Of a DNA stretch of 64,000 bases, positions 6,848 through 59,631 are shown piece after piece. Position 1 is the stretch's first letter. Each line of letters begins with the position of its first letter. The notes under the pieces were generated by a model that was given only the letters and a program-made list of their open reading frames with translations, did no database searches and had not been told where the DNA came from. Source of the DNA: Planctomycetota bacterium (GTDB taxonomy: Bacteria; Planctomycetota; Phycisphaerae; SM23-33); NCBI GenBank assembly GCA_022705325.1, contig JAKJER010000006.1, forward strand, positions 169,097 to 233,096, written 5' to 3'. Position numbers and translations under genes: made by a program.

Positions 6848-7471
6848 TCAGGCCGAAGCCTCGCCCGCGGGGGCGGCTTCCGCGGCCGGGGGAGCTTCCG
6901 CGGCCGGGGCGGCTTCGGCGGCCGGAGCAGCTTCGGCTTCCAGCTTCTCGCCGGCTTCCTCTCGCTTCTCCTGGATGGCCTTGACCAGCGAGGCGATGGC
7001 CCCGCCGGGCCCGATCAGGCAGCCGGCCAGGTTGGCGCCGCTGGACAGCACGCACGAGACCGCCTGCCCGATGGCTTCGGGGCGGGTCGGGTACTTGCTG
7101 AGAGCCTCGATCTCTTCTTCCCGGAAGGGGTTGCCTTCGAGGACCGCGGCCTTGACCACCAGCTTGGGCGTCTCGCGATGGATGTCCAGCAGTTCGCGAA
7201 CGATGGTGACGACGCTGTCGGCCCCGTAGGCCAGGGCGCAAGGCCCGTCCAGCAGGTCGCCGGCGGCATCGAGCTTGATCTCGCGGAAGGCCGAGCGGGC
7301 CAGCGAGTTCTTGACCACCATCAGGCGGATGTCCTTCTGGAGCAGGCGAGAGCGGATCTGGTGGGTGGTGACCGCGTCGACGCCGGTGAATCCGACCACC
7401 GCCAGCGAATCCACGCCGGCCAGGCGATCGGTAATCTCTTTGCGAAGCAGTTCCTTGACTGGTTTGCTCAT
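6848..7471 (-). CDS. rplJ: 50S ribosomal protein L10 with an extra C-terminal EAAPA-type repeat tail
   Basis: 207 aa. It is L10-like throughout and ends in …EAEAAPAAEAAPAAEAPPAAEAAPAGEASA. It sits between rplA and rplL. Confidence 0.92.
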   Translation of the reverse strand: MSKPVKELLRKEITDRLAGVDSLAVVGFTGVDAVTTHQIRSRLLQKDIRLMVVKNSLARSAFREIKLDAAGDLLDGPCALAYGADSVVTIVRELLDIHRETPKLVVKAAVLEGNPFREEEIEALSKYPTRPEAIGQAVSCVLSSGANLAGCLIGPGGAIASLVKAIQEKREEAGEKLEAEAAPAAEAAPAAEAPPAAEAAPAGEASA

Positions 7472-11933: not shown

Positions 11934-14900
11934 ATGATGACAAGGTTGAAGGGCGTCGCGACGGTCGTATGGGTCCTCGCTCTGGCGTCGCCGGCGAGGG
12001 CGGGTGAAAGCTACCCCCTGCTGGGCAAGGTCCGTCCGCGGCATGCCAGGGAGATCGCCGCCTCGCCCTGGTCGGTCGGCGGGGAGACGCTCGACCGCGA
12101 CTACGCGATCTACGCCAACTACAAGGGCTACCTCGGGCCGCTGGGGGTCAAGAAGATCCGCCTCCAGGCCGGCTGGGCCAAGTGCGAGAAGAAGCCCGGC
12201 CGGTACGACTGGACCTGGCTGGACGAGGTGGTGGACGATGCCCTCGCCCAGGGAGTGGCGCCCTGGCTGGAGACGTCGTACGGCAATCCCATCTACGAAG
12301 GCGGCGGCGGGGCCGGCCTCGGCGGGGGCCTGCCCACCGGCGAGAAGGCCCTGGCCGCCTGGGACGCGTGGGTGGCGGCCCTGGTCGGGCGCTACCGTGA
12401 CCGCGTGTTGGAGTGGGAGATCTGGAACGAGCCCGATCTCAACAAGAAGAACACCGCCGCCGACTACGCCGCCTTCTACATCCGCACGGCCGAGATCATC
12501 CGCCGCGAGCAACCCAAGGCCAGGCTGCTGGCCCTGGCCATCGCGGGGATCGGCAACACGGCCTACGTCGAGAGCTTCCTCAAGCCGCTGGCCGATCAGA
12601 AGAAGCTGCACCTGGTGGACCAGATCACGGTGCACGGGTACCCGGAGAACCCCGACTCGTCGTACCCCACCCTGGCCAAGCTGCTGAAGGTGGTGCGGAA
12701 GTACGACCCGAAGATCCCGCTGCGCCAGGGCGAGAACGGGGCGCCGTCGACGAAGACCGTCGGAGCCCTGTCCAAGCTCAAGACGTCCGAGACCGTCCAG
12801 GCCAAGTGGGACCTGCGCCGGATGATGGGCGATCTCGGCCACGACATGGAGTCCAACGTCTTCACGCTGATGGAGCTTCGTTACCGCGGCGGGCGGATGG
12901 ACGGATGGAACACCAAGGGCATCCTCAAGGCCGCTCCGGACATGACCGTGGAGAGGCCCAAGCAGGCGTATTACGCCGTGCAGAACGTGACGGCGATCTT
13001 CGACAGCACGCTGGCCCGCGTCGCGGACTTCGCCTGCAAGGCCGACCTGGACCAGCCGCTGGCGGCCTACGCCTACAAGCGGGCCGACGGGGCGTGCGCC
13101 GCGACGCTCTGGCTGAGCGGCAGGGTCCCCGCCGACGCCAGCGACAAGACGCCCGCGAACCTCACGCTGACGGGCGTGAAGTTCACCGAGCCGCTCTGGG
13201 TGGACCTGCGGACGGGCGAGGTGCGGGCGATCCCGGCCGACCGCTGGAAGGCCGGCGAGGGCGGCTGCTCGTTCCAGGGCGTGCCCGTCTACGACTCGCC
13301 GGTCGTGATCGCCGAGAAGTCGCTCGTGCCGCTGGCGCCGGCGGCAGCGGCGCGTGGCACGGGCATCCTGCCCGTGCGTCCCACGGGCGTCCCGCCCGTG
13401 GGCCAGGGCCGGGACGGCCCTGCGACGCAGGGGCGAGACGCCCATGCCACGCTTGTGCTCACCAGGCCGGTCCGCATCGCCGGGCCCAAGCAGGACGACG
13501 CCGTCCGCCTGGCCATGGAGGACCTGGCCGGCGACGTCGAGGCCGCCCTCGGCCGAAAGGCCGAGGTGCTGCCCCCGCCGGAAGCGGCCAAGGCCGCCCG
13601 CGCCGACATAGTCGTCCGAATCGACGGCGGCCTGAACGAGCCGGGAAGCTACACCATCGAAGTCACCAAAGACGGCGTGACCATCCGCGGGGCCGACCGG
13701 CTGGGGGCGGTCTACGGCGTCTACCGCTTCAGCCGCGAGTTCCTCGGCGTCGACCCGCTGTGGTTCTGGAAAGGCCACGCCGCCCCCACCGACCGCCGCG
13801 ACCGCATCGTGCTGCCCGCGGGCACGATTCGCTCGCAGCGGCCGGCGTTCCGCTACCGCGGCTGGTTCATCAACGACGAGGACCTGCTGAGCGAGTGGCT
13901 GGCACCCAGCGGCAAGCGGTCGATCGATTACCCGTTCTATGGGCAGGTCATCTCGCTGGAGATCGCCGAGCGGATCTTCGAGGCCCTGCTGCGATGCGAG
14001 GGCAACCTGGTCATCCCCGCGTCGTTCGTCGACGTGATGAACGAGCCGGAAGCCGAACTGGTCCGCCGGGCGGTGCGCCGCGGGCTGTACGTGACTCAGC
14101 ACCACATCGAGCCGCTGGGCGTGAGCCACTTCGGCTTCGAGAACTTCTGGAAGCGCCAGGGCAGGACCGTGCGGATGTCCTACGCGAGCGACCCCCAGGC
14201 CGTCCGGGAGACGTGGACGGCCTTCGCCCGCCGCTGGGCGGAACTGGCGGGCGAGCAGGTCATCTGGCAGCTCGGCCTGCGCGGGCGGGGCGACATGCCG
14301 GTCTGGTCCAGCGACAAGTCCGTCTCGGCCGACAAGGCGGGCGAGATTATCTCCGCCGCCATCGCCGACCAGTGGCGGATCGTCCGCTCGGTGGACAAGC
14401 GCGACCAGCCGCCCACGACGGTAACGCTGTGGATGGAAGGCTCGCAGTTGATGGCCCGCGGCAGCCTGAAGCTGCCCACGGGCGTCACCGTCGTCTTCGC
14501 CGACGAGGGCTCCTCACAGACGCTCCAGGACGACTTCCGCCAGACGCCCCGCGCCGCCGACCACACGTATGGGCTGTACTACCATATCGCGTTCTGGTCT
14601 CGCGGCCCGCACCTGGTGGCCGGCACGCGGATCGGCAAGCTCGCCGACCAGCTCGGGCAGGTCATCGACAAGGGCGACACCCACTACGCCGTCTTCAACG
14701 TCTCGAACATCCGCGAGCACGTGCTGGGGGCAGCCGCCGGCATGGAGATCCTCCGCGACGGGCGCTCGTGGGACCGCAAGGGCTTCATCGGTCGCTGGCC
14801 GGCCCGGCAGGTCGCCCTGCCGGAGTGCCTGCTGGAGCTGCCCGGCGACCGGTTGTTGCAGGACGGCACGGCCTGGGTGCTGGCCCGCAAGCTGCTGGAC

Positions 14901-15284
14901 CAGCTCGCCAGGAAGAAGACCGCCTTCCCCAGGGATTACCTGCCCGCGGGCGCCGCCACTGCCGGGGACTTCGCCGCCGCCCTGGACCGTTGCATCCAGA
15001 AGCTCGACGCGCTGGTCAAGCAGGCGGACGCGGGCGCCGCCGACAGGTTCTACACTCACACCCAGCCGCTGATGCTGCGCCAGTACTACGCCTACCTGCG
15101 GGAACTGGCGATGGCGATGGAGGACCGCTCCCGCCTGGCTGCCGCCTGTAAGGAACTGGAGGCCCTGTTGGCGATCCGCAACGAGGCCCAGGCCGGCCGA
15201 TGGGCGAACTGGTATCGCGGAGACAAGAAGGAGAACCTGCCCGCCCTGCTGGAGCGAACGCGGACATTGACCAGCGACCATTGA
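11934..15284 (+). CDS. Secreted two-module glycoside hydrolase: N-terminal clan GH-A TIM-barrel domain (…WEIWNEPD…) plus a C-terminal domain of uncertain family (GH115/DUF4838-like?)
   Basis: Start trimmed to MMTRLKGVATVVWVLALASPARA (signal peptide) with AAGGA upstream. The NEP catalytic acid/base motif is typical of GH5/30/39. The second half (…FRYRGWFINDEDLL…NLVIPASF…) resembles large accessory GH domains. The ORF ends …LTSDH* inside a CATTGA heptamer array. Confidence 0.6.
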   Translation: MMTRLKGVATVVWVLALASPARAGESYPLLGKVRPRHAREIAASPWSVGGETLDRDYAIYANYKGYLGPLGVKKIRLQAGWAKCEKKPGRYDWTWLDEVVDDALAQGVAPWLETSYGNPIYEGGGGAGLGGGLPTGEKALAAWDAWVAALVGRYRDRVLEWEIWNEPDLNKKNTAADYAAFYIRTAEIIRREQPKARLLALAIAGIGNTAYVESFLKPLADQKKLHLVDQITVHGYPENPDSSYPTLAKLLKVVRKYDPKIPLRQGENGAPSTKTVGALSKLKTSETVQAKWDLRRMMGDLGHDMESNVFTLMELRYRGGRMDGWNTKGILKAAPDMTVERPKQAYYAVQNVTAIFDSTLARVADFACKADLDQPLAAYAYKRADGACAATLWLSGRVPADASDKTPANLTLTGVKFTEPLWVDLRTGEVRAIPADRWKAGEGGCSFQGVPVYDSPVVIAEKSLVPLAPAAAARGTGILPVRPTGVPPVGQGRDGPATQGRDAHATLVLTRPVRIAGPKQDDAVRLAMEDLAGDVEAALGRKAEVLPPPEAAKAARADIVVRIDGGLNEPGSYTIEVTKDGVTIRGADRLGAVYGVYRFSREFLGVDPLWFWKGHAAPTDRRDRIVLPAGTIRSQRPAFRYRGWFINDEDLLSEWLAPSGKRSIDYPFYGQVISLEIAERIFEALLRCEGNLVIPASFVDVMNEPEAELVRRAVRRGLYVTQHHIEPLGVSHFGFENFWKRQGRTVRMSYASDPQAVRETWTAFARRWAELAGEQVIWQLGLRGRGDMPVWSSDKSVSADKAGEIISAAIADQWRIVRSVDKRDQPPTTVTLWMEGSQLMARGSLKLPTGVTVVFADEGSSQTLQDDFRQTPRAADHTYGLYYHIAFWSRGPHLVAGTRIGKLADQLGQVIDKGDTHYAVFNVSNIREHVLGAAAGMEILRDGRSWDRKGFIGRWPARQVALPECLLELPGDRLLQDGTAWVLARKLLDQLARKKTAFPRDYLPAGAATAGDFAAALDRCIQKLDALVKQADAGAADRFYTHTQPLMLRQYYAYLRELAMAMEDRSRLAAACKELEALLAIRNEAQAGRWANWYRGDKKENLPALLERTRTLTSDH

Positions 15285-15312
15285 ACATTGACCGTTGATC
15301 ATTGACCATTGA
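15264..15312. repeat. Heptanucleotide tandem array, 7 x (N)CATTGA, straddling the stop codon of the upstream GH gene
   Basis: ACATTGA CCAGCGA CCATTGA ACATTGA CCGTTGA TCATTGA CCATTGA read directly from the sequence; the TGA stop at 15282-15284 is part of the third unit. Confidence 0.8.
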
Positions 15313-15344
15313 AGACTCGTCTTGGGGCGCCGGTTCACTCGTGT

Positions 15345-15414
15345 CTCGTCCCTCGTCCCTATTCCCTGTTCCCTAGTCCCTGTTCCCTCGTCCCTCATCC
15401 CTATTCGCCGTTCG
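15345..15414. repeat. Heptanucleotide tandem array, 10 x TNNTCCC-type units
   Basis: TCGTCCC TCGTCCC TATTCCC TGTTCCC TAGTCCC TGTTCCC TCGTCCC TCATCCC TATTCGC CGTTCGA, strictly 7-nt periodic, in the spacer between the GH gene and argB. Confidence 0.85.
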
Positions 15415-15500
15415 ATGTTTTTCTTTCAGTGTCGTCTTGACCCCCCGTCGCTCGGCGGGTATGTTGCGCTGTTTCTCTTTTTGCACAAGGCACAGCGGAT

Positions 15501-16373
15501 ATGGAAGAAGCAATCGCGAAAGCACAGACGCTGGTCGAGGCGCTGGGGTACATCCAGCGCTTCTCGGACAAGATCATCGTGGTCAAGATGGGCGGCTCGG
15601 TGATGGACGACGAGCGCGCCATGAGCGACATCATGACCGACATCGTGTTCATGAACACGGTGGGGATGCGTCCGGTGATCATCCACGGCGGGGGCAAGGC
15701 CATCAACAACGCCATGGAGGCCCGCGGGCTCCAGGTGGAGTTCGTCCAGGGACGGCGCTACACGGACCAGCGGACGTTGACGGTGGTCGAGCACGTCCTG
15801 TGCAACGAGATCAACCGCCAGCTCGTGAACATGATCGAGGCCATGGGCTCCAGCGCGATGGGCCTGCACACGCTCAGCTCGACGGTGCTGTTCGGCGAGA
15901 AGCTGTTCCTGGAGTCCGAGGGGCGCAAGATCGACCTGGGCTTCGTCGGGCGGGTCACCAGCGTGAACGCCCGGCTGATCGAGCTGCTCTGCCAGGCCGA
16001 CACCGTCCCGGTGATCGCCCCGCTGGCCCGCGACAGGACGGGCACCAAGCTCAACTGCAACGCCGACACCGCCGCGGGCGAAGTGGCCGCCGCGCTGAAG
16101 GCCGAGAAGTTCGTCGTCGTCAGCGACACGCACGGCATCCGGCGCGACCCGAAGGACCCCGCCAGCCTCATCGCCCAGGTCAGCGAGGCCGAGATCCGCG
16201 CCATGATCCAGGACGGGACGATCTCCTCGGGCATGTTGCCCAAGGTCGAGGCGTGCCTGCGGGCGCTGGACGGCGGGGTCCAGCGGACCCACATCATCGA
16301 CGGACGATTCCCCCACTCGCTGCTGCTGGAGATCTTCTCCGACGGCGGCGTCGGCACGCTCATTCAGAAGTAA
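15501..16373 (+). CDS. argB: Acetylglutamate kinase
   Basis: 290 aa with …KIIVVKMGGSVM… and …VIIHGGG…, the amino-acid kinase family signatures of NAGK. It is followed by argF. Confidence 0.92.
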   Translation: MEEAIAKAQTLVEALGYIQRFSDKIIVVKMGGSVMDDERAMSDIMTDIVFMNTVGMRPVIIHGGGKAINNAMEARGLQVEFVQGRRYTDQRTLTVVEHVLCNEINRQLVNMIEAMGSSAMGLHTLSSTVLFGEKLFLESEGRKIDLGFVGRVTSVNARLIELLCQADTVPVIAPLARDRTGTKLNCNADTAAGEVAAALKAEKFVVVSDTHGIRRDPKDPASLIAQVSEAEIRAMIQDGTISSGMLPKVEACLRALDGGVQRTHIIDGRFPHSLLLEIFSDGGVGTLIQK

Positions 16374-20809: not shown

Positions 20810-21754
20810 TCAACCCTGGCGGGACCCTTGCGGGCGGAGGTACTTCACGATCTTGTCCATCATGGCGTCGAAGAACTCGTGGGAGTAGGTCACGCCGTGG
20901 TGGAGCCGAAGCGGGCGGATGTCCTCCGGGAGGTCGCCGCCCTGGGGGAAGGCGAAGTCGGGCATCATCAGGGGGATGATGTTGCTCTTGACGCGGATCG
21001 CCTGGGCGATCTCTTTGCGGACCCAGTCCTCGTCGTCGCGGCAATGGGCGAGCGAGTTGGGCGACAGGATGAGCAGGAAGTTCGGCGCGTAGGCGATTTC
21101 CGCGAGCAAGGCTTCGTCGAAGTGCCCGGTGGACAGGTCGTCCACGTCGAGGAACACGCTGAAGCCGCGCTGTCGCAGTTCCGCGCGGATGAGCCGGGCG
21201 GTCTGGCCGCCCTCGCGGCGTCGATAGCTGATGAACACGTCGCTGCCCTGCGGGGCGGGGGCGGCGGGGCTTGGCGGCGCGGGAGCAGCAGGCGGCCGGG
21301 CCGGCGCCTGCACGGGCGGTGGGGTCGCGGACGGCCTTGAGGGGGCCGACGTCGATGGCGGAAGCTTGCGGAGAATAGCAATCAGCCGCTCGACGTGCTT
21401 GGCCAGGGGCGGCGGGAAGAGGTCCATCCACGGGGCGTTGCCCAGCAGATACTCCAGCGTGCCGCGCGGTTGCACCTTCTCCAGGCGGCACGGGATGACG
21501 ACCTTGCCGCGGGCTGTCGCACACTCGATCTCGCGGATGATCTGCCGCGATTCGTTGGCCTCCTGGCTGAACAGGAAGACCACGACCCGGGCCGACTGAA
21601 TGGCGTCCAGGATGGACGTGGACCACTCCGCGCCCTCGGGGAGGTCCCTGGGGGCGAACCAACACCGCAGGCCGGCAGCCTCCAGTTGCTCACAGACGGC
21701 CTTGCGCTTGTCGGACTGCCGCAGCGGACACGTGATGAAGACGTCGTGCGCCAT
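20810..21754 (-). CDS. Tandem TIR-TIR domain protein: two Toll/interleukin-1-receptor-like domains joined by a Pro/Ala-rich linker
   Basis: Domain 1 is MAHDVFITCP…VVVFLFSQEANESRQIIREIE… and domain 2 is …SDVFISYRRREGG…FLLILSPNSLAHCRDDEDWVRKEI…. Both have the DVFIS/T betaA motif and the S-x-x-S…E (alphaC catalytic Glu) pattern of NAD-cleaving TIR domains. The linker is PPSTSAPSRPSATPPPVQAPARPPAAPAPPSPAAPAP. Confidence 0.7.
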   Translation of the reverse strand: MAHDVFITCPLRQSDKRKAVCEQLEAAGLRCWFAPRDLPEGAEWSTSILDAIQSARVVVFLFSQEANESRQIIREIECATARGKVVIPCRLEKVQPRGTLEYLLGNAPWMDLFPPPLAKHVERLIAILRKLPPSTSAPSRPSATPPPVQAPARPPAAPAPPSPAAPAPQGSDVFISYRRREGGQTARLIRAELRQRGFSVFLDVDDLSTGHFDEALLAEIAYAPNFLLILSPNSLAHCRDDEDWVRKEIAQAIRVKSNIIPLMMPDFAFPQGGDLPEDIRPLRLHHGVTYSHEFFDAMMDKIVKYLRPQGSRQG

Positions 21755-21864
21755 CGCTCCTGCACGATAACAGAATCGAACGAGGCTCGCCAGTTAAAGC
21801 CTTCGCGCGCGGACCCGCGGGAGCGCAGAACGCTCGGGCGGCGAGAACCGAACGGCGAATGTCT

Positions 21865-22030
21865 CAATGTCCCATTTTTTCGGAAGTTGTCCTGACGGAT
21901 TGGGAGGGCAAGACAGACTGCAACCGACCCTTCGTACGGCACTTACAGTCGCCTCTTCGAAAGCGTAAAAACAAGATTACCCTGAAATATCGGCGCAAAA
22001 ATGGGACATTCAGACCCTAAATGGGACATT
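21865..22030. promoter_or_regulatory. Operator-like repeats in a locally AT-richer spacer upstream of the TIR-TIR gene: 2 x AAATGGGACATT (direct, 20-nt phase) plus an inverted AATGTCCCATT copy
   Basis: AAATGGGACATT at 21999-22010 and 22019-22030; CAATGTCCCATTTTTT at 21865-21880. ATGGGACAT is itself a near-palindrome, and the 20-nt phasing equals two helical turns. Confidence 0.3.
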
Positions 22031-22085
22031 GGGACGTTCGGCTCTGTCGCGCCGGAGGCCAGGCCGGGCGTGGGCCTGGAAGTTC

Positions 22086-26275: not shown

Positions 26276-28597
26276 ATGAGAAGGCACATCCTTATCGTGC
26301 TCGTGTCTCTGGAACCCCTATTCGCTTCCGCACTTTCCGCCGCCCCGCCGGCGCAGTTTGCAGCCTGGGGCACGACCTGCGGGCCGCTCAAGCCCGTGCC
26401 CGCGGGCTGGAGACTCATCCAACCATCGCCCGCCCCCCCGCCGCCGCCGACCGAGCTCGACCGCAAGCGAGGCTTCCAGATCCTCAGTGACTCCGGATCG
26501 ACCAACGGCGAGCTGCGGCCGATCACCGCGCTTAACCTCTCAGCCGCGGTCGCCGAGTACGAGAGCGCCAGCTTCGTCCTCCACGCACTGCGGCCACTGG
26601 AGGGCGTGACGCTGCGGATCGTCGAACCGCCGGGCCCGCCAGGAGGGCCGGGCGTCGAGAAGACGGACCCGGCGTCGGCTGGCTGGCCGCTCTCGCCTGC
26701 GAACGTCGACATCCGCGTCGCCCGCGCCATACCCTTCCCGCTGGACGCCAAGGCCAAGACGTACCGCAAGGAAGACTGGGTGCTGGAGAAACTTCCGACG
26801 CTGACCCTCGCCGCCGGCGAGCGGGTGCGAGTCTGGCTGACCTTGCGGGCGGACGAGGTGGCGGAGCACCGCGGCAGATTGGAGGTCGCGGCCAACGACG
26901 CCGCGACGAGTCTGGAGGTGATCCTCCGCATCCTGCCGTTTTCCTTGCCCCCGCCGGCTGTCGAGTTCGCGATGTACTACCCGCGCCCGCCGGCCGACGA
27001 CGCCCAACTCGCCCGCGAGTTGATCGACATGCGCGAGCACGGCATGAACTCGATCCTGCCCGCGATTGAGGCGGTGATCAAGACACGCGACCGGAAGTTC
27101 AGCGCCGATGACATGCGGGCGACCCGCGAGCATGCCGAGCGGATGCTGCGGGCCGTGCGCGAGCACCTGGGGCCGCCGCGCTTTCCGCCCCTGGCGGCGG
27201 CCGGGCACCAGATCGCCTACTACTGGAACCAGCGGACCAACTGGTTCGAGTATTGGCCGCACACGCCGCAGATCGAGGCCGACCTGTTGGCTGCCTGCCG
27301 GCTGCTGGACGAGTTGGCCCGCGACCGCGGGGCCGCACGCACGCGGATCTACCTGGCCGACGAAGCCGCCGCTCACAACCTGCTCGACCAGGCTGCGCGG
27401 AGCTACGCCCTGGTCAAGCAGCGCCTGCCCGAGATGGAGACGTGGACCACGATCGGGGGCGGGCTGGCCATGGGCGTCGACGAGTTGGGGCCGCTGGACA
27501 AGTGTGTGGATTTCTTCGCGACCAACCGCTTCACGCCGCAGGTCGCCCGGCGGTTGGTAGGCCGTGGCAAGGCGTTCGGGGTGTATAACGGGGCGGGCCA
27601 CGCCCCCGAGCAGGCCCGCTTCTTCTTCGGCTTTTACGGGTGGAAGACGGCGGCAGCCCAGGTCTCGCAGTGGTGCTACCACTTCGGCGACTCGCCCTTC
27701 GCCGGCAACGGCCTGCGCAAGGAGGATGAGGGCTTCGTCTACCGCGCCGCCGACGGCCCTGTGCCAACGTTGATGTGGGAGGCTGTCCGCGAGGGCGTCG
27801 ACGACTTCCGCTACATGCAACTCCTCGCCCAATTCGTAGTCGCCGCCACGCTGCACGGCGGCGCCGCACCCCAGGCCGTCCATGACGCCCAGGCATGGTT
27901 GCGGGCGACGCTCGCAACGATCGACTGGAACGTCCAGCCACTTCGGTCCGAGGACCGCTCCGCCCCGCCGACCATGGCGCGCATGAACCAGTGGCGCCGC
28001 GAGGCGGTCGACCACATCCTCAAGCTCTCGCCGCAGGGCAAGCCTGCGCCCCTGCCGGAACTCGTCCGCTCGCCCTTCGACCACCCCTGGGCGTCGGCCG
28101 CCCAGCCGGTCAAGCTCGGCGAGGAACTCCTGCCCCAGGTGGGCTTCGAGACCGGCCTGGAACCTTGGCGCGTCGAGGCGTGGAACGGCAAGAGCAGTCA
28201 CCGCCTGGATGACCGCCAGCCGCACGCGGGCAAGCAGTCGGTCCGCATCGACATCCCTGCCGGCCAGCCCAGCACGGCCGTCACCGTCCTGGTCTTGCCG
28301 GGCTACGGTCCCAAGCCCTTCACCCGCACGCTGGCCGGCGGGAGCGGATACGAGCTTTCCGCCTGGGTCAATGCGCCCGCGAGACTCCCGCCGCAGCTCC
28401 GCGTTGCCCTCCCGGACGGCGCCACCGCAAAGACCCAGTCCGGTCAGGACGAGCCCGGCCCGGACGGTTGGCAGCGTCTGTGGCTGCGCGTCTGGCCCAA
28501 GGAGGACGCCAAGCCCAAGTACCTCGCCCTTTGGGTCCAGGGGCCGGGAACGGTGTGGGCGGACGACGTCAGCCTCCGGACGATCATTGACCATTGA
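26276..28597 (+). CDS. Secreted hypothetical glycoside-hydrolase-like protein (DUF4091/GH123-like?) with a C-terminal CBM4/9-like domain
   Basis: Signal peptide MRRHILIVLVSLEPLFASALSA. The central region (…IYLADEAAAH…) looks like a TIM barrel. The C-terminus (…WNGKSSHRLDD…YELSAWVNAP…VWADDVSL) resembles a carbohydrate-binding module. It ends …IIDH* inside a CATTGA heptamer array. Confidence 0.4.
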   Translation: MRRHILIVLVSLEPLFASALSAAPPAQFAAWGTTCGPLKPVPAGWRLIQPSPAPPPPPTELDRKRGFQILSDSGSTNGELRPITALNLSAAVAEYESASFVLHALRPLEGVTLRIVEPPGPPGGPGVEKTDPASAGWPLSPANVDIRVARAIPFPLDAKAKTYRKEDWVLEKLPTLTLAAGERVRVWLTLRADEVAEHRGRLEVAANDAATSLEVILRILPFSLPPPAVEFAMYYPRPPADDAQLARELIDMREHGMNSILPAIEAVIKTRDRKFSADDMRATREHAERMLRAVREHLGPPRFPPLAAAGHQIAYYWNQRTNWFEYWPHTPQIEADLLAACRLLDELARDRGAARTRIYLADEAAAHNLLDQAARSYALVKQRLPEMETWTTIGGGLAMGVDELGPLDKCVDFFATNRFTPQVARRLVGRGKAFGVYNGAGHAPEQARFFFGFYGWKTAAAQVSQWCYHFGDSPFAGNGLRKEDEGFVYRAADGPVPTLMWEAVREGVDDFRYMQLLAQFVVAATLHGGAAPQAVHDAQAWLRATLATIDWNVQPLRSEDRSAPPTMARMNQWRREAVDHILKLSPQGKPAPLPELVRSPFDHPWASAAQPVKLGEELLPQVGFETGLEPWRVEAWNGKSSHRLDDRQPHAGKQSVRIDIPAGQPSTAVTVLVLPGYGPKPFTRTLAGGSGYELSAWVNAPARLPPQLRVALPDGATAKTQSGQDEPGPDGWQRLWLRVWPKEDAKPKYLALWVQGPGTVWADDVSLRTIIDH

Positions 28598-28618
28598 CTA
28601 TTGGCCATTGAACGTTCC
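28584..28618. repeat. Heptanucleotide array (TCATTGA CCATTGA CTATTGG CCATTGA ACGTTCC) overlapping the stop codon of the upstream gene
   Basis: Direct reading; the TGA stop (28595-28597) is embedded in the second unit. Confidence 0.7.
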
Positions 28619-29570: not shown

Positions 29571-29810
29571 ATGGCGGACATACTGATTCAAGGGTTGCAG
29601 GGGCGAACCCTGAACCGCCTCAAGGCCAGAGCCAAGCGCAACAACCGCTCGCTTCAGAGCGAAGTCAAACAACTGCTGGAACAGGCCGCCGGGCCCACCC
29701 CTGAAGAGATCAAGGCCATGTTCGACCGCTGGGACAGACGATTCGACGGGCGACGTTTCCCGGACAGCGCGGAGATGATTCGAGAGGACCGGGAGCGACA
29801 GGTCCTGTAA
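29571..29810 (+). CDS. Ribbon-helix-helix (Arc/MetJ, FitA/VapB-like) antitoxin-type DNA-binding protein, with no adjacent toxin gene
   Basis: MADILIQGLQGRTLNRLKARAKRNNRSLQSEVKQLLEQAA matches the beta-strand/helix/helix pattern (x-L-I-x-x-L…L-K-x-R-A…R-S…E…L) of RHH antitoxins, followed by a charged C-terminal tail. GAGGA RBS 8 nt upstream. 58 nt downstream of the K+ channel gene. Confidence 0.55.
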   Translation: MADILIQGLQGRTLNRLKARAKRNNRSLQSEVKQLLEQAAGPTPEEIKAMFDRWDRRFDGRRFPDSAEMIREDRERQVL

Positions 29811-29894: not shown

Positions 29895-31538
29895 ATGACG
29901 CCTGTTCGCTTCTCAGGGCTGGGGTATTTTCGTTTCGTGCTCGTGTGCGCCTGCCTGCCGGCGTTGGCGGCCGCCCTGCGGCCGGCCCGGGCGGCGGACT
30001 GGCCCCAGTGGGGCGGCGGCAATGCGCGAAACGCCTGCTCGGGCGAGAAGAACCTGCCCGAGTCGTTCGAGCCGGGCGACAAGGACCCCAAGAGCGGCGA
30101 GATCCGCGCCGACACCACCCGCAACGTCAAGTGGTCCGCCCGCCTGGGGGGCGGGTGCTACGGCAACACCACCGTCGCCAACGGGCGCGTCTTCGCCGGC
30201 ACCGACGACCAGACGCTTCGCGAGGACGAGCGCTTCGGCCGGCCCAACACCGCCGGCATGGTCAAGTGCTTCGACGAGAAGACGGGCAAGCTGCTGTGGC
30301 AGTTGCCCATCGCCCCGATCAAGACCCCCAAGGAATGGCACTACGGCTTCCAGAAGCTCGGGGTCTGCTCCTCCCCCACCGTCGACGGCGACCGCGTCTA
30401 CATCGTCTCCCACACCAACGACGTGCTCTGTCTGGACGTCCGCGGCCAGGCCAACGGCAACGACGGGCCCTTCACCGACGAGGCCAAGCTCATGGTCAAG
30501 GCCGACCAGAAGCCGGTTGAGCTCCAGCCCACCGACGGCGACGTGATCTGGCGCTTCAGCGTCAACGAGGAGCTGAAGGTCATCCCCCACGACGTGGCGA
30601 GCTGCTCGGTGGTCGTCCATGGCGACTTCGTCTACCTCTCTACGTCCAACGGGGTCAACCACGCCCACGACAAGCCTCTGTCGCCCGACGCGCCGGCGTT
30701 CATCGCGCTGAACAAGCACACGGGCAAGCTGGCGGCCGTCGAGGACGAGGGGATCAGCAAGCGGATGTTCCACACGCAGTGGTCCTCGCCCTGCCTGGCG
30801 ACGGTGGGCGGGCGGACGCTGGTGGTGGTCGGCGCGACCGACGGCTTCTGCTACGCCTTCGAGCCGCTGGACAAGATGCCCGACGCGCCCGCCAAGCTCA
30901 AGAAGGTCTGGCAGTACGACTGCAACCCCCCCGAGTACCGCCTCCGCGACGGCAAGCGCATCAACTACCTCGACGGCGACAAGCGCAAGAAGACCAGCCC
31001 CAACAAGAACGACGGCACCTACCTGGGCCCCAGCGAGGTCATCGCCACGCCCGCCTTCTCCAACGGGCGCGTCTACGTGGCCATCGGGCAGGACCCCCTC
31101 CACGGCCGGGGAAGGGGCCTGCTCCACTGCATCGACGCCTCCAAGACCGGCGACATCACCAAGACCGGCTGCGTGTGGACCTACGACGGCCTGGACCGCA
31201 CCATCGCCAACGCCGTCGTCGCCGGCGGACTGGTCTACATCCCCGACATCGCCGGAAGACTCCACTGCGTCGACGCCGACACGGGCAAACCGCACTGGGT
31301 GCACGAGATGAAGGCCGAGACCTGGGGCAGCCCCATGGTCGCAGACGGCAAGGTCTACCAGGGCACGCAGAAGGCGCTGCATGTGCTCGCCGCGGGCAAG
31401 GAGGCCAAGGAACTGGCCCGCATCAATCTCGGCTCGCCCATCTACAGCACCCCCATCGCGGCCAACGGCACGCTCTATTTCGCTTCGCAGAAGTACCTGT
31501 GGGCGGTGGCGAAGCAGCCGGTAGCCTCCAGCCGGTAG
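29895..31538 (+). CDS. Secreted PQQ-like beta-propeller repeat protein
   Basis: Signal peptide, then DWPQWGGGNARN… and repeated …G.VY.G..DG.L.A.D..TGK..W… blades. It ends PVASSR* within a GTAGCCT heptamer array. Confidence 0.6.
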   Translation: MTPVRFSGLGYFRFVLVCACLPALAAALRPARAADWPQWGGGNARNACSGEKNLPESFEPGDKDPKSGEIRADTTRNVKWSARLGGGCYGNTTVANGRVFAGTDDQTLREDERFGRPNTAGMVKCFDEKTGKLLWQLPIAPIKTPKEWHYGFQKLGVCSSPTVDGDRVYIVSHTNDVLCLDVRGQANGNDGPFTDEAKLMVKADQKPVELQPTDGDVIWRFSVNEELKVIPHDVASCSVVVHGDFVYLSTSNGVNHAHDKPLSPDAPAFIALNKHTGKLAAVEDEGISKRMFHTQWSSPCLATVGGRTLVVVGATDGFCYAFEPLDKMPDAPAKLKKVWQYDCNPPEYRLRDGKRINYLDGDKRKKTSPNKNDGTYLGPSEVIATPAFSNGRVYVAIGQDPLHGRGRGLLHCIDASKTGDITKTGCVWTYDGLDRTIANAVVAGGLVYIPDIAGRLHCVDADTGKPHWVHEMKAETWGSPMVADGKVYQGTQKALHVLAAGKEAKELARINLGSPIYSTPIAANGTLYFASQKYLWAVAKQPVASSR

Positions 31539-31717
31539 CCTGTGGTCTGTAGCCTGCCGGCAGGCATAAGGTCGGTGGGGTCGCAGGAAGGGCGCAACCC
31601 TTGCCAGCCGCTCAATCCCTTTCTCCGCCGCCATGAAGGCGGTGGGATCAAACAACGAGGCGATTCTCGGACAACCCTTCGGCTACAGGCTACTGACTAC
31701 AGGCTACTGGCTACCGG
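31521..31717. repeat. About 200-bp element with inverted heptamer-array arms (5 x GTAGCCT-type at 31521-31555; 5 x GGCTACN at 31681-31717) around a core carrying the CCTGCCGGCAGG palindrome (31553-31564); MITE-like/REP-like
   Basis: The left arm CCGGTAGCCTCCAGCCGGTAGCCTGTGGTCTGTAGCC is approximately the reverse complement of the right arm GGCTACAGGCTACTGACTACAGGCTACTGGCTACCGG. Both arms are 7-nt periodic. Confidence 0.6.
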
Positions 31718-31765
31718 ATTGTCTCTGGCGTATACTACCAGCATGCCGCCTGACAGGGAGAGAAC

Positions 31766-34662: not shown

Positions 34663-34749
34663 ACCTCTCCGCCCGCCAGGTGATTGGTGATTGCGCCCCG
34701 GCGCGGACGGCTTGCCTGCCAGCCGGGAGGCGGGTATCATGCTGCGACT

Positions 34750-44295: not shown

Positions 44296-44316
44296 AGTCT
44301 CTCCTTGAAGCAATTC

Positions 44317-44418
44317 TCGATTGTCGATTTGCGATTGTCGATTGACCCACCCGTCTTGGCAGGCCCTGCTCAAATCGACAATCGAAAACCTGCCGGCAGG
44401 CAGGTCGACAATCGTCAA
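44317..44418. repeat. REP-like element: heptamer array 4 x TCGATTG-type, inverted copies (AATCGAC AATCGAA … TCGACAA TCGTCAA) and the 23-nt core AACCTGCCGGCAGGCAGGTCGAC (44387-44409)
   Basis: CGATTGTCGATTTG (44316-44329) is the exact reverse complement of CAAATCGACAATCG (44371-44384). The core is identical to 58063-58085. It sits between the URO-D-family stop and the GH106-like start. Confidence 0.75.
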
Positions 44419-45581
44419 TACCATCCGTACTCGTACGCCGCGTCGTACATCGCGACGATGTTCTCAGGCGGCACGCCGGCCTGGATGTTGTGGACGTTGT
44501 TGAACACGTACCCGCCGCCGGGCTTGAACAGCTCGATGTTGCGCCGGACGTGCTCGCGGACCTGGTCCGGCGTGGCCCTCGGCAGGACGCGCTGCGCGTC
44601 GATCGCCCCGCCCCAGAACGTCAGGCGCTCGCCGAACTCCCGCTTGAGCCGCCCCGGGTCCATGTCGGCGGCGCTGATCTGCACCGGGTTGAGGATGTCG
44701 ACGCCGTTGTCGACCAGGTCGCCGATGTACTCGGTGCAGTTGCCGCACGTGTGGTACCAGATCTTCGCCTTCGTCCGCGAGCGGATGTACTGCACGAGTC
44801 GTTTGTGGCGCGGCTTCACGAGCTGACGGTAGAGCGCCGGGCGGAACAGGGGCCCCTGCTGCCCGGCCAGGTCGTCGCCGATCATGATCACGTCCACCAC
44901 GTCGCCGACCTCGTCCAGGAACACCCGGAACCAGTCCATCCAGAACTTGAGCGTCTGGTCCAGCACCGCCTGGCAGAACTCCGGCTCGGTCATCAGGTCC
45001 ACGTACCACTGTTCCAGGCCGCGCATGTACCAGCAGACCTCGTACACCACGCCGCAGATGCCGCTGACCACGGCGTAGGGCGTGTGGTTCTTCAGTTCCA
45101 GGGCCCGCTCGCGCAGGCCCACGAACCGCCCCGGGTCGTCGCCCCTGGGGAACGGGTAGGCCTTCACGTCCTCGATGGTCGCGTTGGCCAGCGGGTGGTG
45201 CGTGATGTCCATGTACAGCCCGTCCTCGGCCGGCATGGACCAGCGGACGCCGAACTCGTCGACCAGGTCGAACCACCGCCTCCCATCGTGCTCGCCCTCG
45301 ACGATGCCGCCCTTCCAGTCGCCCGCCGCCCCGGCCGCGATGTACCGCGTGTCCACGCGGAATCGCTGGAGGAGTTCCTCGCTGGGCTTGGCGAGTTGCT
45401 GGACGGCGTCCATGATCTCGACCGGGCCGTTCATCCCCAGGTGCCGGATCAGCTCGCGGTAGGCGTCGCGATGGATGCCTGTCTGGTTGCCGCCCAGGTC
45501 GATGGGCACGCGGTCCGGCTGCTTGTGGTCCAGGGCGGTCAGGACGCGCTGGCGGGGTGTCATGGTCTCGGTGCGGCTCAT
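44415..45581 (-). CDS. Uroporphyrinogen-decarboxylase (URO-D)/MtaA-CmuA-family protein
   Basis: 388 aa; …TPRQRVLTALDHKQPDRVPIDLGG… plus a TIM-barrel-length body typical of PF01208 members. GGAG RBS. Its start overlaps the rhaT stop by 4 nt. Confidence 0.6.
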   Translation of the reverse strand: MSRTETMTPRQRVLTALDHKQPDRVPIDLGGNQTGIHRDAYRELIRHLGMNGPVEIMDAVQQLAKPSEELLQRFRVDTRYIAAGAAGDWKGGIVEGEHDGRRWFDLVDEFGVRWSMPAEDGLYMDITHHPLANATIEDVKAYPFPRGDDPGRFVGLRERALELKNHTPYAVVSGICGVVYEVCWYMRGLEQWYVDLMTEPEFCQAVLDQTLKFWMDWFRVFLDEVGDVVDVIMIGDDLAGQQGPLFRPALYRQLVKPRHKRLVQYIRSRTKAKIWYHTCGNCTEYIGDLVDNGVDILNPVQISAADMDPGRLKREFGERLTFWGGAIDAQRVLPRATPDQVREHVRRNIELFKPGGGYVFNNVHNIQAGVPPENIVAMYDAAYEYGWY

Positions 45582-46714: not shown

Positions 46715-46807
46715 ATGCGGTCCTTTCTCTGTTACACGACTGGTGAATGTGGATTGTCGTTTCGCCCTGGGCGGTTGTCAACCGACTGGCGGCCCGCGGC
46801 CGCATCC

Positions 46808-53064: not shown

Positions 53065-54788
53065 GCACGCGAGGACTCACACTGGGTTGTGTCCTGCTGG
53101 GCCTGTTGCAGGCCGTAGCTCCGGCCGCCGACGCGACGGCGCTTCGCTGCGCCGGCGTCCTGGGCAACTCCGGCGAGCAGGGCAAGACGCTGGTGCGGCT
53201 GGGCCCGGAAGAGGCCAGCGGCATCGGCGTGGTGGTCGACAAGTACGGCACGCTGTGGGACCGCGGCGGCGCGGGCACGCTTAACCGCTATGCCCCCGAC
53301 GGGCGCCTGCTGGGCTCGTATCCCATCGCCGGCGGGCGGGGCAATCGAGGCTCCGACGTCATCGCCCTGCTGGGCGACACGATCGTCCTGCGGCTGGGCG
53401 ACGGCCTGTACGCCTTGAACGTGGACGACAAGCCGGGCACGCCGGCCCGGCCGCTGAACGTGCCGGCCGACCGCCTGTCGCTGACCGCCCGCGACGGATG
53501 GCTGGCGGCGTCCAAGGGCAAGGACGTGTTCCTGGTCAACGCCGAGGGCAAGACCAAACCGCTGGCGACCCTGCCGTCTGAGCCGCACCTGGGCGTGTCG
53601 TTCGACGCCGAGGGCAACGTCTGCGCGGACCTGGAATGGAAGCTGCATCGTGTCGTCGCCGGCGGCTCGCCGGTGCTGCTGGGCCCCGTGCCGGGCGAAC
53701 GTCCGCTGCTGGTGGACGGCTACTGGTACGGCAGCGCGTGGCACAGCACGCTGCGGCGGTTCGACGCGTCGCTCCAGCCGGCGCCGGGCGTGGTGCTGGG
53801 AGGCAACAGCGGCTCGTTCATCGGGCACGTGGCCGAGCAGGCGGAGATCGTCAACTCCCGCGGCCTGGCCCGCGTGCGGGGCGACCTGTTCGCGATCTCC
53901 GGGCTCACGGGCGTGCTGCACCTGGCGGCCTGGAACGGCGACGACCTGCGATTCGAGGTGGTGCGGCGCATCGGGGCGGCCGGCGCCTGTTCCGCGCTGG
54001 CCCTGGACAGCGAGGGGCGGACCTGGTTCCGCGCCGGCTCGTGGAACTGGGACGACGGCCCGGCCAGCCCGCTGCGATGGGGCATCCCCGAGCCGGACAG
54101 CGTCTTCGGTCTGGCCGTGCGGGACGACGACGCGGTCGTCGGCTACGGCGTGAAGTACGGCAAGTGCTCCATCTTCTGCGGCAAGCTGGACAAGGAAATC
54201 CGCGTCTGGCAGATCGAGGGCAACAGTGCGCTGCCCAAGTCGGCTGTCGCCGTCGCCGCCATCCAGGAGAAGGGCCGGCACACGCTGCTGGTGCTGGACA
54301 ACCAGGGGCGTCTGGCAGGCTTCCGCGTCGGCGGCGACGGGCGCCCTGAAGGCGACGCAGCCCCCACGACCGTCAGGACCGCCAAGCCGGTCAAGGAGTG
54401 GACGTCGCTGGCCGCCCTCTCGGACGACAAGCTCGTGGCTGCCGGCGACGGACAGGTCATCGAACTTGCCCGCAACGGGGCCGACTGGAAAGAGACCGCC
54501 CGCTGGAACTCCTGGGGCGAAGGGCCGGGCGAGAAGCTTGGCGGCAGCATTCGCCTGGCGAGCGAATCGGGACGGCTGTGGGTTGCCGACGCCACCCGCC
54601 ACCGCGTCGTCTGCCTGTCGCTGGACGGACGGAAGTTACTGGGAACGTTCGGGCAGACGGACCGCGCGGGCGACGACCTGGCCCATCTCAGCGCCCCCGC
54701 CGCCCTGGCCGCCCGCGGCGGGCGGGCCGTCGTGTTCGACAGCGGCAACCAGCGACTCGTGCGGATTCAATTGTCAAGCGGCCATTGA
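53061..54788 (+). CDS. Secreted beta-propeller repeat protein, translationally coupled (ATGA, GGAGGTGAAGGA RBS) to the upstream gene
   Basis: MSTRGLTLGCVLLGLLQAVAPAADA signal. Repeated …LWVADATRHRVVCLSLDGRKLLGTFG… blades. It ends …QLSSGH* in a TTGTCAA/TTGACAA repeat. Confidence 0.5.
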   Translation: MSTRGLTLGCVLLGLLQAVAPAADATALRCAGVLGNSGEQGKTLVRLGPEEASGIGVVVDKYGTLWDRGGAGTLNRYAPDGRLLGSYPIAGGRGNRGSDVIALLGDTIVLRLGDGLYALNVDDKPGTPARPLNVPADRLSLTARDGWLAASKGKDVFLVNAEGKTKPLATLPSEPHLGVSFDAEGNVCADLEWKLHRVVAGGSPVLLGPVPGERPLLVDGYWYGSAWHSTLRRFDASLQPAPGVVLGGNSGSFIGHVAEQAEIVNSRGLARVRGDLFAISGLTGVLHLAAWNGDDLRFEVVRRIGAAGACSALALDSEGRTWFRAGSWNWDDGPASPLRWGIPEPDSVFGLAVRDDDAVVGYGVKYGKCSIFCGKLDKEIRVWQIEGNSALPKSAVAVAAIQEKGRHTLLVLDNQGRLAGFRVGGDGRPEGDAAPTTVRTAKPVKEWTSLAALSDDKLVAAGDGQVIELARNGADWKETARWNSWGEGPGEKLGGSIRLASESGRLWVADATRHRVVCLSLDGRKLLGTFGQTDRAGDDLAHLSAPAALAARGGRAVVFDSGNQRLVRIQLSSGH

Positions 54789-54791
54789 CAA
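54771..54791. repeat. 7-7-7 inverted heptamer (TTGTCAA GCGGCCA TTGACAA) overlapping the stop codon
   Basis: Direct reading; the stop TGA is at 54786-54788 inside the third unit. Confidence 0.5.
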
Positions 54792-54806
54792 CGGACAATC
54801 AAGTCC

Positions 54807-56030: not shown

Positions 56031-56105
56031 TAGTGGTTCGTGCACAGTGGATGGCCAAGCGCGTCCTGTTCTCTTCCCTATCCACTATCCACTGTCCACT
56101 ATTCC
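56029..56105. repeat. Inverted heptamer arrays (AATAGTGG…CACAGTGG vs TATCCAC TATCCAC TGTCCAC TATT) between the permease gene and nrdJ
   Basis: AATAGTGGTTCGTGCACAGTGGATGG is approximately the reverse complement of CTATCCACTATCCACTGTCCACTATT. Units are 7-nt periodic and contain CACTAT / ATAGTG, which resemble NrdR half-sites. Confidence 0.55.
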
Positions 56106-56140
56106 GCGCGTTAGAATGTCGGAGAGCAAAGCGTCACCCA

Positions 56141-58036: not shown

Positions 58037-58085
58037 TTGCGGATTGCGAATTGCGGACTGCGAACCTGCCGGCAGGCAGGTCGAC
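58035..58085. repeat. Second copy of the REP-like element: 4 x GATTGCG heptamers plus the identical 23-nt core AACCTGCCGGCAGGCAGGTCGAC (58063-58085)
   Basis: GATTGCG GATTGCG AATTGCG GACTGCG starts at the nrdJ stop (TGA 58034-58036). The core is 23/23 identical to 44387-44409. Confidence 0.75.
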
Positions 58086-59596: not shown

Positions 59597-59631
59597 TCGT
59601 CGTTCGTTGTTCGCTATTCGTTGTTTGTCAC
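59597..59631. repeat. Heptamer array TCGTCGT TCGTTGT TCGCTAT TCGTTGT TTGTCAC starting immediately after the stop codon
   Basis: Direct reading; it begins at the nucleotide after TGA (59594-59596). Confidence 0.7.

Follow-up and report, generated by a model that had tools for sequence, protein, structure and literature searches.

The spacer between the GH115 gene and argB in a genome of the class Phycisphaerae (Planctomycetota) holds two tandem arrays of 7-nucleotide (nt) units, the first of which runs across the stop codon of GH115, and this raises the question of what kind of repeat such arrays are, how widely they occur and whether they do anything for the genes next to them. We have followed this question in a window, by which we mean the whole stretch of 64,000 nt analysed here (GenBank assembly GCA_022705325.1, contig JAKJER010000006.1, positions 169,097 to 233,096 of the forward strand), and in loci collected from other genomes and metagenomes. 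The arrays are heptanucleotide simple-sequence repeats of a kind already described in bacteria, which here occur in a lineage new for them and in many cases form long hairpins by pairing. A first-pass annotation of this DNA had taken them for an element without a described class, a view that does not stand, as intergenic heptanucleotide repeats, some of them in inverted pairs, have been described in many bacteria (PMC4692102, PMC4679880, PMC6749651).

Arrays in the window have been called with Tandem Repeats Finder (TRF) at period 7 and with our own lag-7 scan, which required at least 4 units and at least 76% self-matches and for which 30 dinucleotide-preserving shuffles served as control; gene coordinates for the window were the calls stored with the public assemblies. 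The scan found 8 period-7 arrays where 0.17 were expected and, under the same criteria, none at periods 8 to 12 in the window, while stricter scoring left 5 against 0.03 in the shuffles. The claim of a non-random array family in a constant 7-nt register is thereby supported. The arrays are imperfect tandem runs of 4 to 10 units, and with weaker partner arms added they group into seven elements (Table 1). Among the loci listed at first, arrays at the main ones were confirmed by TRF and the lag scan, and three are not arrays: at 54771-54791 and at about 46750-46790 there is no TRF period-7 match and a promoter pattern stands instead (Table 1), and the weak locus at 34679-34693 has just 2.1 units, which is the level of chance. 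The array at 31681-31714 and the partner arms at 44371-44420 and 56031-56055 were absent from that list.

The units had been said to differ between loci, which is correct in so far as several types are present (CATTGAC, TCGTCCC, GGTAGCC, ATTGTCG, CTATCCA, GATTGCG, and TCGTTGT), but five arrays have a common ATTG/GTTG core (CATTGAC twice, ATTGTCG, GATTGCG, and GTTGTTC). The density of ATTG is 4.2 per kb in spacers and 0.62 per kb in genes. Within an array, 5-6 positions of the unit are fixed and 1-2 are variable, as in TNNTCCC and NCATTGA. The arrays are not assembly artefacts, because one and the same GH115-argB spacer is present in no fewer than 8 independent assemblies of different samples, and a further seven loci of other assemblies can be aligned with the window without any gap, with at most 11 substitutions per 21 kb. 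The assemblies with the exact proteins all belong to one strain (at least 99.95% identity), and the identical ArgB protein is encoded on DAOPOD010000001.1 (GCA_035357775.1) and on JGI, ENA, and Logan contigs.

The placement of the arrays relative to genes is also regular. With the final base of the upstream stop codon as zero point for the start of an element, and with partner arms counted into elements, all seven elements of the window lie between co-directional genes and start at -26 to 0 nt, and the proposed anchoring at gene 3' ends is thus upheld. No array was found in the three divergent, the three convergent or the ribosomal-protein spacers of the window. Every window array lies in a spacer or overlaps a gene end by at most 26 nt, which amounts to a non-coding bias. 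Three of the arrays overlap a gene end, and TGA or TAG is part of their units (CATTGAC twice and GGTAGCC); where the unit has no stop triplet, the array starts just past the stop codon. Because 7 equals 1 modulo 3, a unit that contains TGA or TAG gives a stop in every reading frame within three units; an array that overruns a gene end or changes its unit number therefore adds no long aberrant tail, and by the same arithmetic a stop codon inside the unit needs no special signal. For annotation this means that the repeat itself can create gene ends, the last codons and the stop codon of three window genes being inside arrays.

At the main locus, the last 7 codons of GH115 (..TLTSDH*) are units 1-3 of the NCATTGA array, and its stop codon TGA (15282-15284) is the in-frame TGA of unit 3. 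Both of the two largest arrays had been placed at stop codons, which is right for NCATTGA and wrong for TNNTCCC, as the latter lies 61 nt downstream of the stop codon, behind the first array and separated from it by a gap of 32 nt. The locus has no hairpin. The sense strand of the TNNTCCC array contains 47% C and 13% G and barely folds, and its variation is restricted to two of the seven unit positions. TRF also reported higher-order repeats of 14 nt and 21 nt inside 15345-15414, which are typical of growth by slippage. The array is followed by a T-rich tail and then by the argB promoter-like site, and both arrays of the locus thus sit between the GH115 stop codon and the argB promoter match. 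On the minus strand, 15345-15402 reads (GGGANNA)8, with 8 GGG tracts at 7-nt spacing and 5 overlapping matches to the G-quadruplex motif, and it is the only array with at least four G3 tracts at this spacing. A rut-type site would be a C-rich, G-poor, and unstructured tract of about 70 nt or more in the transcript; 15345-15414 may be a candidate, and the other arrays are not C-rich. An ArgR operator was considered at this locus and rejected by eye, no ARG-box-like palindrome being present. In the other genomes compared, GH115 is not adjacent to argB and the main locus has no orthologous spacer.

For the wider comparison, we have used an argB-anchored set of 80 Phycisphaerae loci (1.13 Mb) and, independently of it, a set of 80 metagenome loci anchored on the ribonucleotide reductase (RNR) gene and consisting of mixed taxa (0.55 Mb). 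The former contains 71 period-7 arrays as compared with 11, 12, and 1 at periods 8, 9, and 10, and the latter contains 10 as compared with 0, 3, and 0. Period-7 arrays are common across the class Phycisphaerae. The best relatives of ArgB (15501-16373) are found in metagenome-assembled genomes of Phycisphaerae and Planctomycetota, and no relative of the source genome was closer than 82% identity for ArgB in the genome scan or 77% for RNR in the metagenome scan. The closest relatives in the genome collection carry almost no arrays; the nearest RNR relative (77% identical) carries five units of GGTTGTT right at the RNR stop codon.

Across all loci, 31 elements between co-directional genes have a median gap of 0 nt to the stop codon and of 29 nt to the next start codon, and 21 of them have a stop-codon gap of at most 10 nt; in the related loci these values depend on our own gene caller, which is imperfect (32 of 39 known 3' ends were recovered) and whose start predictions err upstream, an error that works against the contrast between the two gaps. 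The gap measurements supersede an earlier test with 95-nt windows, in which arrays were present in 25 of 692 stop-anchored, 22 of 686 start-anchored, and 2 of 728 gene-internal windows. The suggested enrichment at stop codons is therefore real relative to the inside of genes, but stop-anchored and start-anchored windows do not separate, because short spacers fall in both. By spacer type, the density of arrays is 0.72 per kb between co-directional, 0.22 between convergent, and 0.18 between divergent genes, in a set of related loci that is biased by the argB anchor and by the imperfect gene caller.

The conserved gene pair argB-argF provides an orthologous spacer that could be compared over about 60 species. 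This spacer is 30 nt or shorter in about 20 species (13 nt in the window) and free of arrays there, and the argB-argF element is therefore dispensable. In 17 species it is 40-140 nt long and filled with period-7 arrays, and inverted pairs with very stable folds are present in 13 of these 17 spacers (z from -3.7 to -13.4). The units vary by species and include CATTTGT, ATTTGCG, GGGTTCA, AGTTGCT, GTCAGTG, and GGATGCG, among others. Together with the GGTTGTT array of the RNR relative, these 17 spacers agree with the first expectation that period and position are kept in relatives while the sequence changes. Three relatives with the common unit AGTTGCG (L058, L070, and L065) have 1-2, 4, and 5 units per arm, respectively, so both arms expand together.

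In the same spacer, two species have units of 8 nt, namely L036 (GGCACGGA), where the array is a hairpin, and L014 (ACCCATTA or ACCAGTTA), and therefore the architecture is not strictly bound to period 7. Directly after the argB stop codon of L012 (1697-1751), there are TAGGGNN repeats, including GGGTTTAGGGTTTAGGG, which is the plant telomere repeat TTTAGGG, and these repeats fit the G-quadruplex motif on the sense strand.

Pairing is the second conspicuous property of the family. Over all loci, an inverted partner was found for 34 of 79 arrays (about 43%), where 1.8 were expected, and the pairs can fold into hairpins of 30-60 base pairs. Three elements of the window are inverted pairs: that at 31513-31719, with 37-nt arms of 78% complementarity between 31513-31555 and 31680-31719, and the hemE-GH106 hairpin at 44313-44420, in which 44371-44420 pairs with 44313-44346, fold well as RNA (z = -3.6 and -4.1, respectively), and that at 56031-56106 folds weakly, in fact no better than shuffled sequence (z = -0.8).

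We have searched for signs of function in several ways. The first statement that classical intrinsic terminators are scarce is supported in so far as terminator-like patterns are not enriched, the window giving 7 and 8 matches and the shuffles 7.6 and 7.0; just two of the matches, both weak, overlap array elements (44401-44388 and 56049-56066). A search of the window with Rfam 15 at the gathering score gave three tRNAs only and nothing at the arrays. The other species speak against the first-pass idea of a plain terminator substitute, since their hairpin arrays occupy the interior of the argB-argF operon and extend as far as the start codon of argF. A terminator role judged from the type of spacer was rejected, as arrays are not enriched between convergent genes in the argB-biased set. 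Selection on a hairpin in the sense-strand RNA was rejected as well: the antisense fold is the more stable one in 15 of 20 hairpin spacers (p = 0.03), and as G-U pairs would favour the sense fold if the sense RNA were selected, there is no sign of such selection. A rut-like strand bias of single arrays was not found (C outnumbers G in 10 of them and is outnumbered by it in 8), nor was a genome-specific core motif, units within a genome matching at 4.07 positions and units of different genomes at 3.91 (p = 0.09).

Table 1. Heptamer arrays and associated features of the window. Start relative to stop codon and gap to next start codon (both in nt) are values of the whole element and are given once, at its 5' part.
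Feature	Position	Strand	TRF span and result	Spacer	Start relative to stop	Gap to next start	Remarks
NCATTGA array, 7 units	15264-15312	+	15265-15312, 6.9 copies, CATTGAC	GH115 to argB	-21	86	Units ACATTGA CCAGCGA CCATTGA ACATTGA CCGTTGA TCATTGA CCATTGA
TNNTCCC array, 8-10 units	15345-15414	+	15345-15402, 8.3 copies; higher-order repeats of 14 nt and 21 nt extend to 15413	GH115 to argB			Called by lag scan and TRF
Sigma-70-type promoter match TTGACC-17-TATGTT	15437-15465	+		GH115 to argB			Upstream of argB, start codon 15501
Weak inverted arms AATGTCC and GGGACAT, 2-3 units	21856-22040			TIR-domain gene/SLC12 gene			
CATTGAC array, about 4 units	28581-28613	+	28585-28611, 3.9 copies	773-aa gene to ion channel gene	-17	102	Stop codon of 773-aa gene (28595-28597) is TGA of one unit; C/T-rich tract follows
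GGTAGCC array, about 5 degenerate units	31513-31555	+	31515-31541, 14-nt repeat	PQQ-repeat gene to GDE gene	-26	46	5' arm of inverted pair; stop TAG of PQQ-repeat gene (31536-31538) inside a unit
GGCTACA array, about 5 units	31680-31719	+	31681-31714, 4.9 copies	PQQ-repeat gene to GDE gene			3' arm, reverse complement of 31513-31555; 126 nt from GGTAGCC arm; ends 46 nt before GDE gene start
GACAATC units, about 5	44313-44346	-	44313-44344, 4.6 copies	hemE to GH106			3' arm of hemE-GH106 hairpin; ends 17 nt before GH106 start
ATTGACG and ATTGTCG units	44371-44420	-		hemE to GH106	-6	17	5' arm, begins in hemE stop codon (44415-44417)
Sigma-70-type promoter-like match TTGACA-17-GACAAT	46753-46781	-					Upstream of RhaT gene; no array
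Sigma-70-type promoter-like match TTGTCA-17-GACAAT	54771-54799	+					Just upstream of MacB/FtsX gene; no array
Weak inverted pair	56031-56106	+	56078-56102, 3.6 copies	MacB/FtsX gene to RNR gene	0	34	Starts 1 nt after MacB/FtsX stop codon; arms of ATAGTGG-type units (56031-56055) and CTATCCA, 3.6 units (56078-56102)
GATTGCG array, 4 units	58028-58066	+	58035-58062, 4.0 copies	RNR gene to 483-aa gene	-9	78	Begins in RNR stop TGA (58034-58036); small palindrome adjoins directly
Small palindromic element AACCTGCCGGCAGGCAGGTCGAC, 23 nt	58062-58084			RNR gene to 483-aa gene			Identical copy at 44387-44409
TCGTTGT array, about 4 units	59595-59625	+	59597-59625, 4.1 copies	483-aa gene to 885-aa gene	-2	113	Begins at stop codon of 483-aa gene (59594-59596)

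Knowledge of heptanucleotide repeats in bacteria goes back to about 1990. According to Mrazek et al. (2007), as cited in PMC4679880 and PMC4692102, these repeats are the most abundant long simple-sequence repeats (LSSR) of most prokaryotic genomes, and polymerase slippage is proposed there as their origin. Described cases include the GGGAATC repeats of Xanthomonas and GGGGAYT repeats of Nostoc, which have an intergenic bias, form inverted pairs, are scarce between divergent genes and are transcribed, with a function given as unknown (PMC4692102), the tandem heptamers of Calothrix and Nostoc (cited in PMC4692102), the (GATAGRA)n heptamers of Chloroflexus (PMC6749651), and the TAACTGA repeats of Beggiatoaceae, for which single-strand-binding proteins have been proposed as partners, with S1, Csp, and CsrA as candidates (PMC4679880). 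Burkholderia is also named among the lineages concerned. Our search found no literature report of heptanucleotide repeats in Planctomycetota or Phycisphaerae. The present arrays show the generic properties of heptanucleotide LSSR, namely head-to-tail 7-nt copies, an excess of period 7 and a non-coding bias. They are also like the LSSR described by Mrazek, Guo, and Shah (2007) in being intergenic, in occupying dispersed loci with different units and in being scattered over lineages, and depart from that description in their stop-codon anchoring, their high share of inverted pairs and the G+T-rich 5' arms of these pairs, to which we return below.

More specific kinds of repeat are similar and not identical. 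Cyanobacterial STRR resemble the arrays of the window in being brief runs of 7-nt units placed in the non-coding DNA close to gene ends. The STRR consensus heptamers are CCCCAGT, TTGGTCA, and CAACAGT. By this consensus, no window unit equals an STRR heptamer; CATTGAC differs at two of seven positions from ATTGGTC, a rotation of TTGGTCA, and one related locus (L044) carries the ATTGGTC unit exactly. The host here belongs to Phycisphaerae and not to the cyanobacteria, the DNA has 68% G+C and there are many more unit types per genome. The G-quadruplex repeats of Xanthomonas and Nostoc share with the Phycisphaerae arrays fixed G tracts with variable loops, an intergenic position near gene ends, inverted pairs and rarity between divergent genes (PMC4692102), but only one of nine window arrays qualifies as such a repeat, its C-rich strand is the sense strand for both neighbours and its quadruplex is a predicted one. 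The TAACTGA repeats of Beggiatoaceae are heptamer direct repeats between co-directional genes, essential genes included, with a single unit lying a few nt upstream of start codons and one inverted case (PMC4679880), whereas here there are many units, stop-anchored arrays with 17-113 nt to the next start codon and many inverted pairs. REP, BIME, and REPIN elements, known from enterobacteria and pseudomonads, are intergenic hairpins too, often within operons and near stop codons, and work like 3' stabilisers or punctuation marks; REPs, however, have one consensus of 20-40 nt spread by the RAYT transposase, in contrast to local 7-nt units without a common consensus (PMC3116915, PMC3733652). REP/REPIN palindromes are multi-copy and bear a GTAG or CGTC tag; in the window only a 23-nt palindrome is repeated, three times, and no RAYT gene is present in the gene lists covering the 64-kb window and about 2 kb beyond its end. 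In the strict sense, the arrays are members neither of STRR nor of REP/REPIN, intrinsic terminators, contingency loci or the TAACTGA repeats.

As to how the arrays have come about, we put at a little better than even the account that they arise by slippage, that their arms are copied between each other, and that they persist in the unconstrained spacer after the stop codon, acting at most as passive punctuation of transcripts. A local heptamer would expand by slipped-strand mispairing; many bacteria show a preference for 7 nt, which has been attributed to the DNA polymerase. Intrastrand template switching would copy the expansions from arm to arm, and the arms would stay matched while the unit number changes. 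The placement would reflect the fact that the unconstrained DNA of a short spacer is that directly after the stop codon, before the next promoter or ribosome-binding region, and arrays containing TGA or TAG could overrun gene ends harmlessly, which would be the reason why the stop codon is often inside a unit. The weakest step concerns activity, for which composition and position are the guides: if the arrays act at all, it would be as passive marks, in that hairpins may slow 3' exonucleases or the terminating ribosome, and at the main locus the C-rich and G-poor tract with its T-rich tail, standing before the argB promoter, may help to end the GH115 transcript, e.g., through Rho loading.

Several observations weigh against this account. 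No polymorphism in unit number was detected among assemblies that differ by at most 11 substitutions per 21 kb, and therefore no slippage rate is visible at present. The persistence of arrays in the same argB-argF spacer across many species could reflect selection. Slippage alone leaves unexplained the restriction of TNNTCCC variation to two of seven positions, the start of all seven window elements at stop codons, and a polarity of the inverted pairs, 27 of 29 of which have a 5' arm rich in G+T and a 3' arm rich in A+C (p = 1.6e-6; pairs from the window and from loci L001-L080 and L095-L174, e.g., L070 5131-5216 and L057 4672-4796). This polarity reads alike on either strand, and the non-periodic intergenic hairpins of the same loci are split 24 to 24. 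Possibly ATG, GTG, and TTG codons are kept out of the arm that faces the downstream start codon, or the C-rich arm is kept from exposure to Rho before its complement has been transcribed, or the pairs arise via fold-back copying of G/T-rich repeats.

Selection for a lineage-wide 3'-end or intercistronic signal, which would end or punctuate the transcript, shield the mRNA from 3' exonucleases or stall the ribosome in the manner of REP, is a rather unlikely explanation in our judgement. REP elements of Escherichia coli stabilise upstream mRNA, and a 2015 study by Liang, Rudd, and Deutscher reportedly found that a REP within about 15 nt of the stop codon lowers expression of the upstream gene via ribosome stalling. 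The start of elements at the stop codon, with its median gap of zero and 21 of 31 gaps within 10 nt, would be expected of such a signal, as would very stable hairpins in the same spacer of 13 species with different units, arms that remain complementary as units change and unit numbers that shift in both; the lack of terminator-pattern enrichment in the window leaves room for another signal, and the main locus stands between a stop codon and the next promoter match. However, the sense RNA folds no better than the antisense, a usable hairpin is lacking in four of the seven elements of the window (three are without an inverted partner, and the fold of 56031-56106 is at the level of shuffled sequence), and single arrays have no bias of C over G. 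The absence of enrichment between convergent genes, the roughly 20 species with argB-argF and no spacer element, and the nearly array-free state of the closest relatives in the genome collection also speak against it.

A broader proposal is that the heptamer hairpins form an actively generated or maintained class across Phycisphaerae, whose polarity and stop-anchoring reflect a specific mechanism. The mechanism would be either fold-back or templated synthesis of G/T-rich repeats, or a function coupled to the terminating ribosome or to Rho. We regard this as improbable.

We give slightly less weight again to periodic binding sites for a protein that holds single-stranded RNA or DNA with about 7 nt per domain, for which cold-shock-domain, S1, and KH-domain proteins would be candidates. 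A spacing of 7 bp is out of phase with the DNA helix and suits a single-strand binder better than a duplex binder. The pattern of 5-6 fixed and 1-2 variable unit positions and the ATTG/GTTG core of five window arrays, together with the excess of ATTG in spacers, are consistent with recognition of the unit, and S1, Csp, and CsrA have been named for a related repeat (PMC4679880). On the other hand, units differ widely across loci and species, their similarity within a genome is not significant, pairing into hairpins would hide the single strand, and no candidate protein was identified.

It is distinctly unlikely that the ATTG-class arrays are promoters or promoter-proximal operator repeats of the downstream gene, comparable to the heptads of the cholera toxin promoter. 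That promoter carries TTTTGAT heptads, and the -35 consensus reads TTGAC. Units of TTGACC in the arrays at 15264 and 28581 are oriented towards the genes downstream, a promoter-like match, TCGACA-17-GAGAAT, lies inside the 44313-44346 array (44313-44341, minus strand), with similar sites at two weak loci of the first list, and where both neighbouring genes run the same way, the position of an element does not by itself tell to which of them it belongs. Yet the arrays abut the stop codon and not the start codon, the gaps to the next start being 17-113 nt; argB has a better promoter match 125 nt past the first array; most units (TCGTCCC, GGTAGCC, CTATCCA, and TCGTTGT) are not promoter-like; and arrays are rare between divergent genes (0.18 per kb). 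The promoter-like sites at 44313-44341, 46753-46781, and 54771-54799 follow the pattern T(T/C)G(A/T)CA-17-GA(C/G)AAT. Because 3 x 7 + 2 = 23, a perfect (TCGACAA)n array carries -35-like and -10-like hexamers 17 nt apart, and judging from the sequence some heptamer arrays could double as promoters.

Miniature mobile DNA, that is, MITE- or REPIN-like hairpins spread by a transposase or carriers of a small palindrome, has very little probability in our estimate. The inverted-pair architecture recalls such elements, and the 23-nt palindrome AACCTGCCGGCAGGCAGGTCGAC occurs three times, in every case touching a heptamer array: besides the two identical copies of Table 1, there is a shorter, GTAG-prefixed copy GTAGCCTGCCGGCAGGCA at 31549-31566. 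In the hemE-GH106 hairpin it interrupts one arm like an insertion, the 44371-44420 arm being split by CCTGCCTGCCGGCAGG. The palindrome resembles a tiny REP-like or SDR-like mobile element. Elhai et al. are said to have described, in 2008, mobile elements of 21-27 nt nested in heptamer repeats of Nostoc. Against mobility, no two window elements have flanks or a consensus in common, units vary across loci, orthologous elements diverge by degrees among relatives, as under vertical descent, no transposase is nearby in the window gene lists, and the palindrome is absent from the 170 other loci fetched. Phase-variable contingency loci, in which unit number would switch the expression of a neighbouring gene, are already disfavoured and hardly credible, since tandem repeats are indeed the classic substrate of switching (PMC4679880, PMC12721329) but these are imperfect, show the same unit number in 8 or more assemblies of separate samples and occupy the 3' ends of glycoside-hydrolase and housekeeping genes instead of lying within 5' coding sequence or between the hexamers of a promoter.

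The genes around the arrays form two parts, with rpoB, ribosomal-protein genes, nusG, secE, and tuf on the minus strand in the left part of the window and, beyond the rpoB/ribosomal-protein block, glycoside hydrolases mixed with housekeeping genes. The weak inverted arms AATGTCC and GGGACAT are 111-141 nt apart in a 331-nt spacer (21755-22085) and may be a decayed member of the heptamer-array family. The gene on one side of this spacer (20810-21754, minus strand) encodes a TIR-domain protein (TIR_2, with faint ThsB-like matches) and adjoins the SLC12-type transporter gene. Other repeats of the window are of different kinds. The gene of ribosomal protein L10 (6848-7471, minus strand) ends in an 18-nt tandem repeat of 3.6 copies (6870-6934), which encodes an Ala/Pro/Glu-rich tail, (AAPAAE)n, and the coding region of GH115 contains at 13352-13452 an inverted repeat with 50-nt arms, 80% complementary and 1 nt apart, which overlaps a 24-nt tandem repeat. 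A gene for a 79-aa FitA-like ribbon-helix-helix antitoxin at 29571-29810 has no adjoining PIN-domain toxin gene.

Among long simple-sequence repeats no class is more over-represented than the heptanucleotide repeats, and the window adds to them a new lineage at the level of a phylum. Since heptamer arrays or hairpins of different sequence fill the argB-argF spacer of 17 Phycisphaerae species and about 20 others leave it empty, this gene pair is a comparative system for such repeats, and the G+T-rich 5' polarity and the stop anchoring are regularities that any slippage-only model must account for. If the heptamer hairpins were indeed an actively generated or maintained class, they would provide the first mechanistic handle on the dominance of 7 nt among bacterial simple-sequence repeats.

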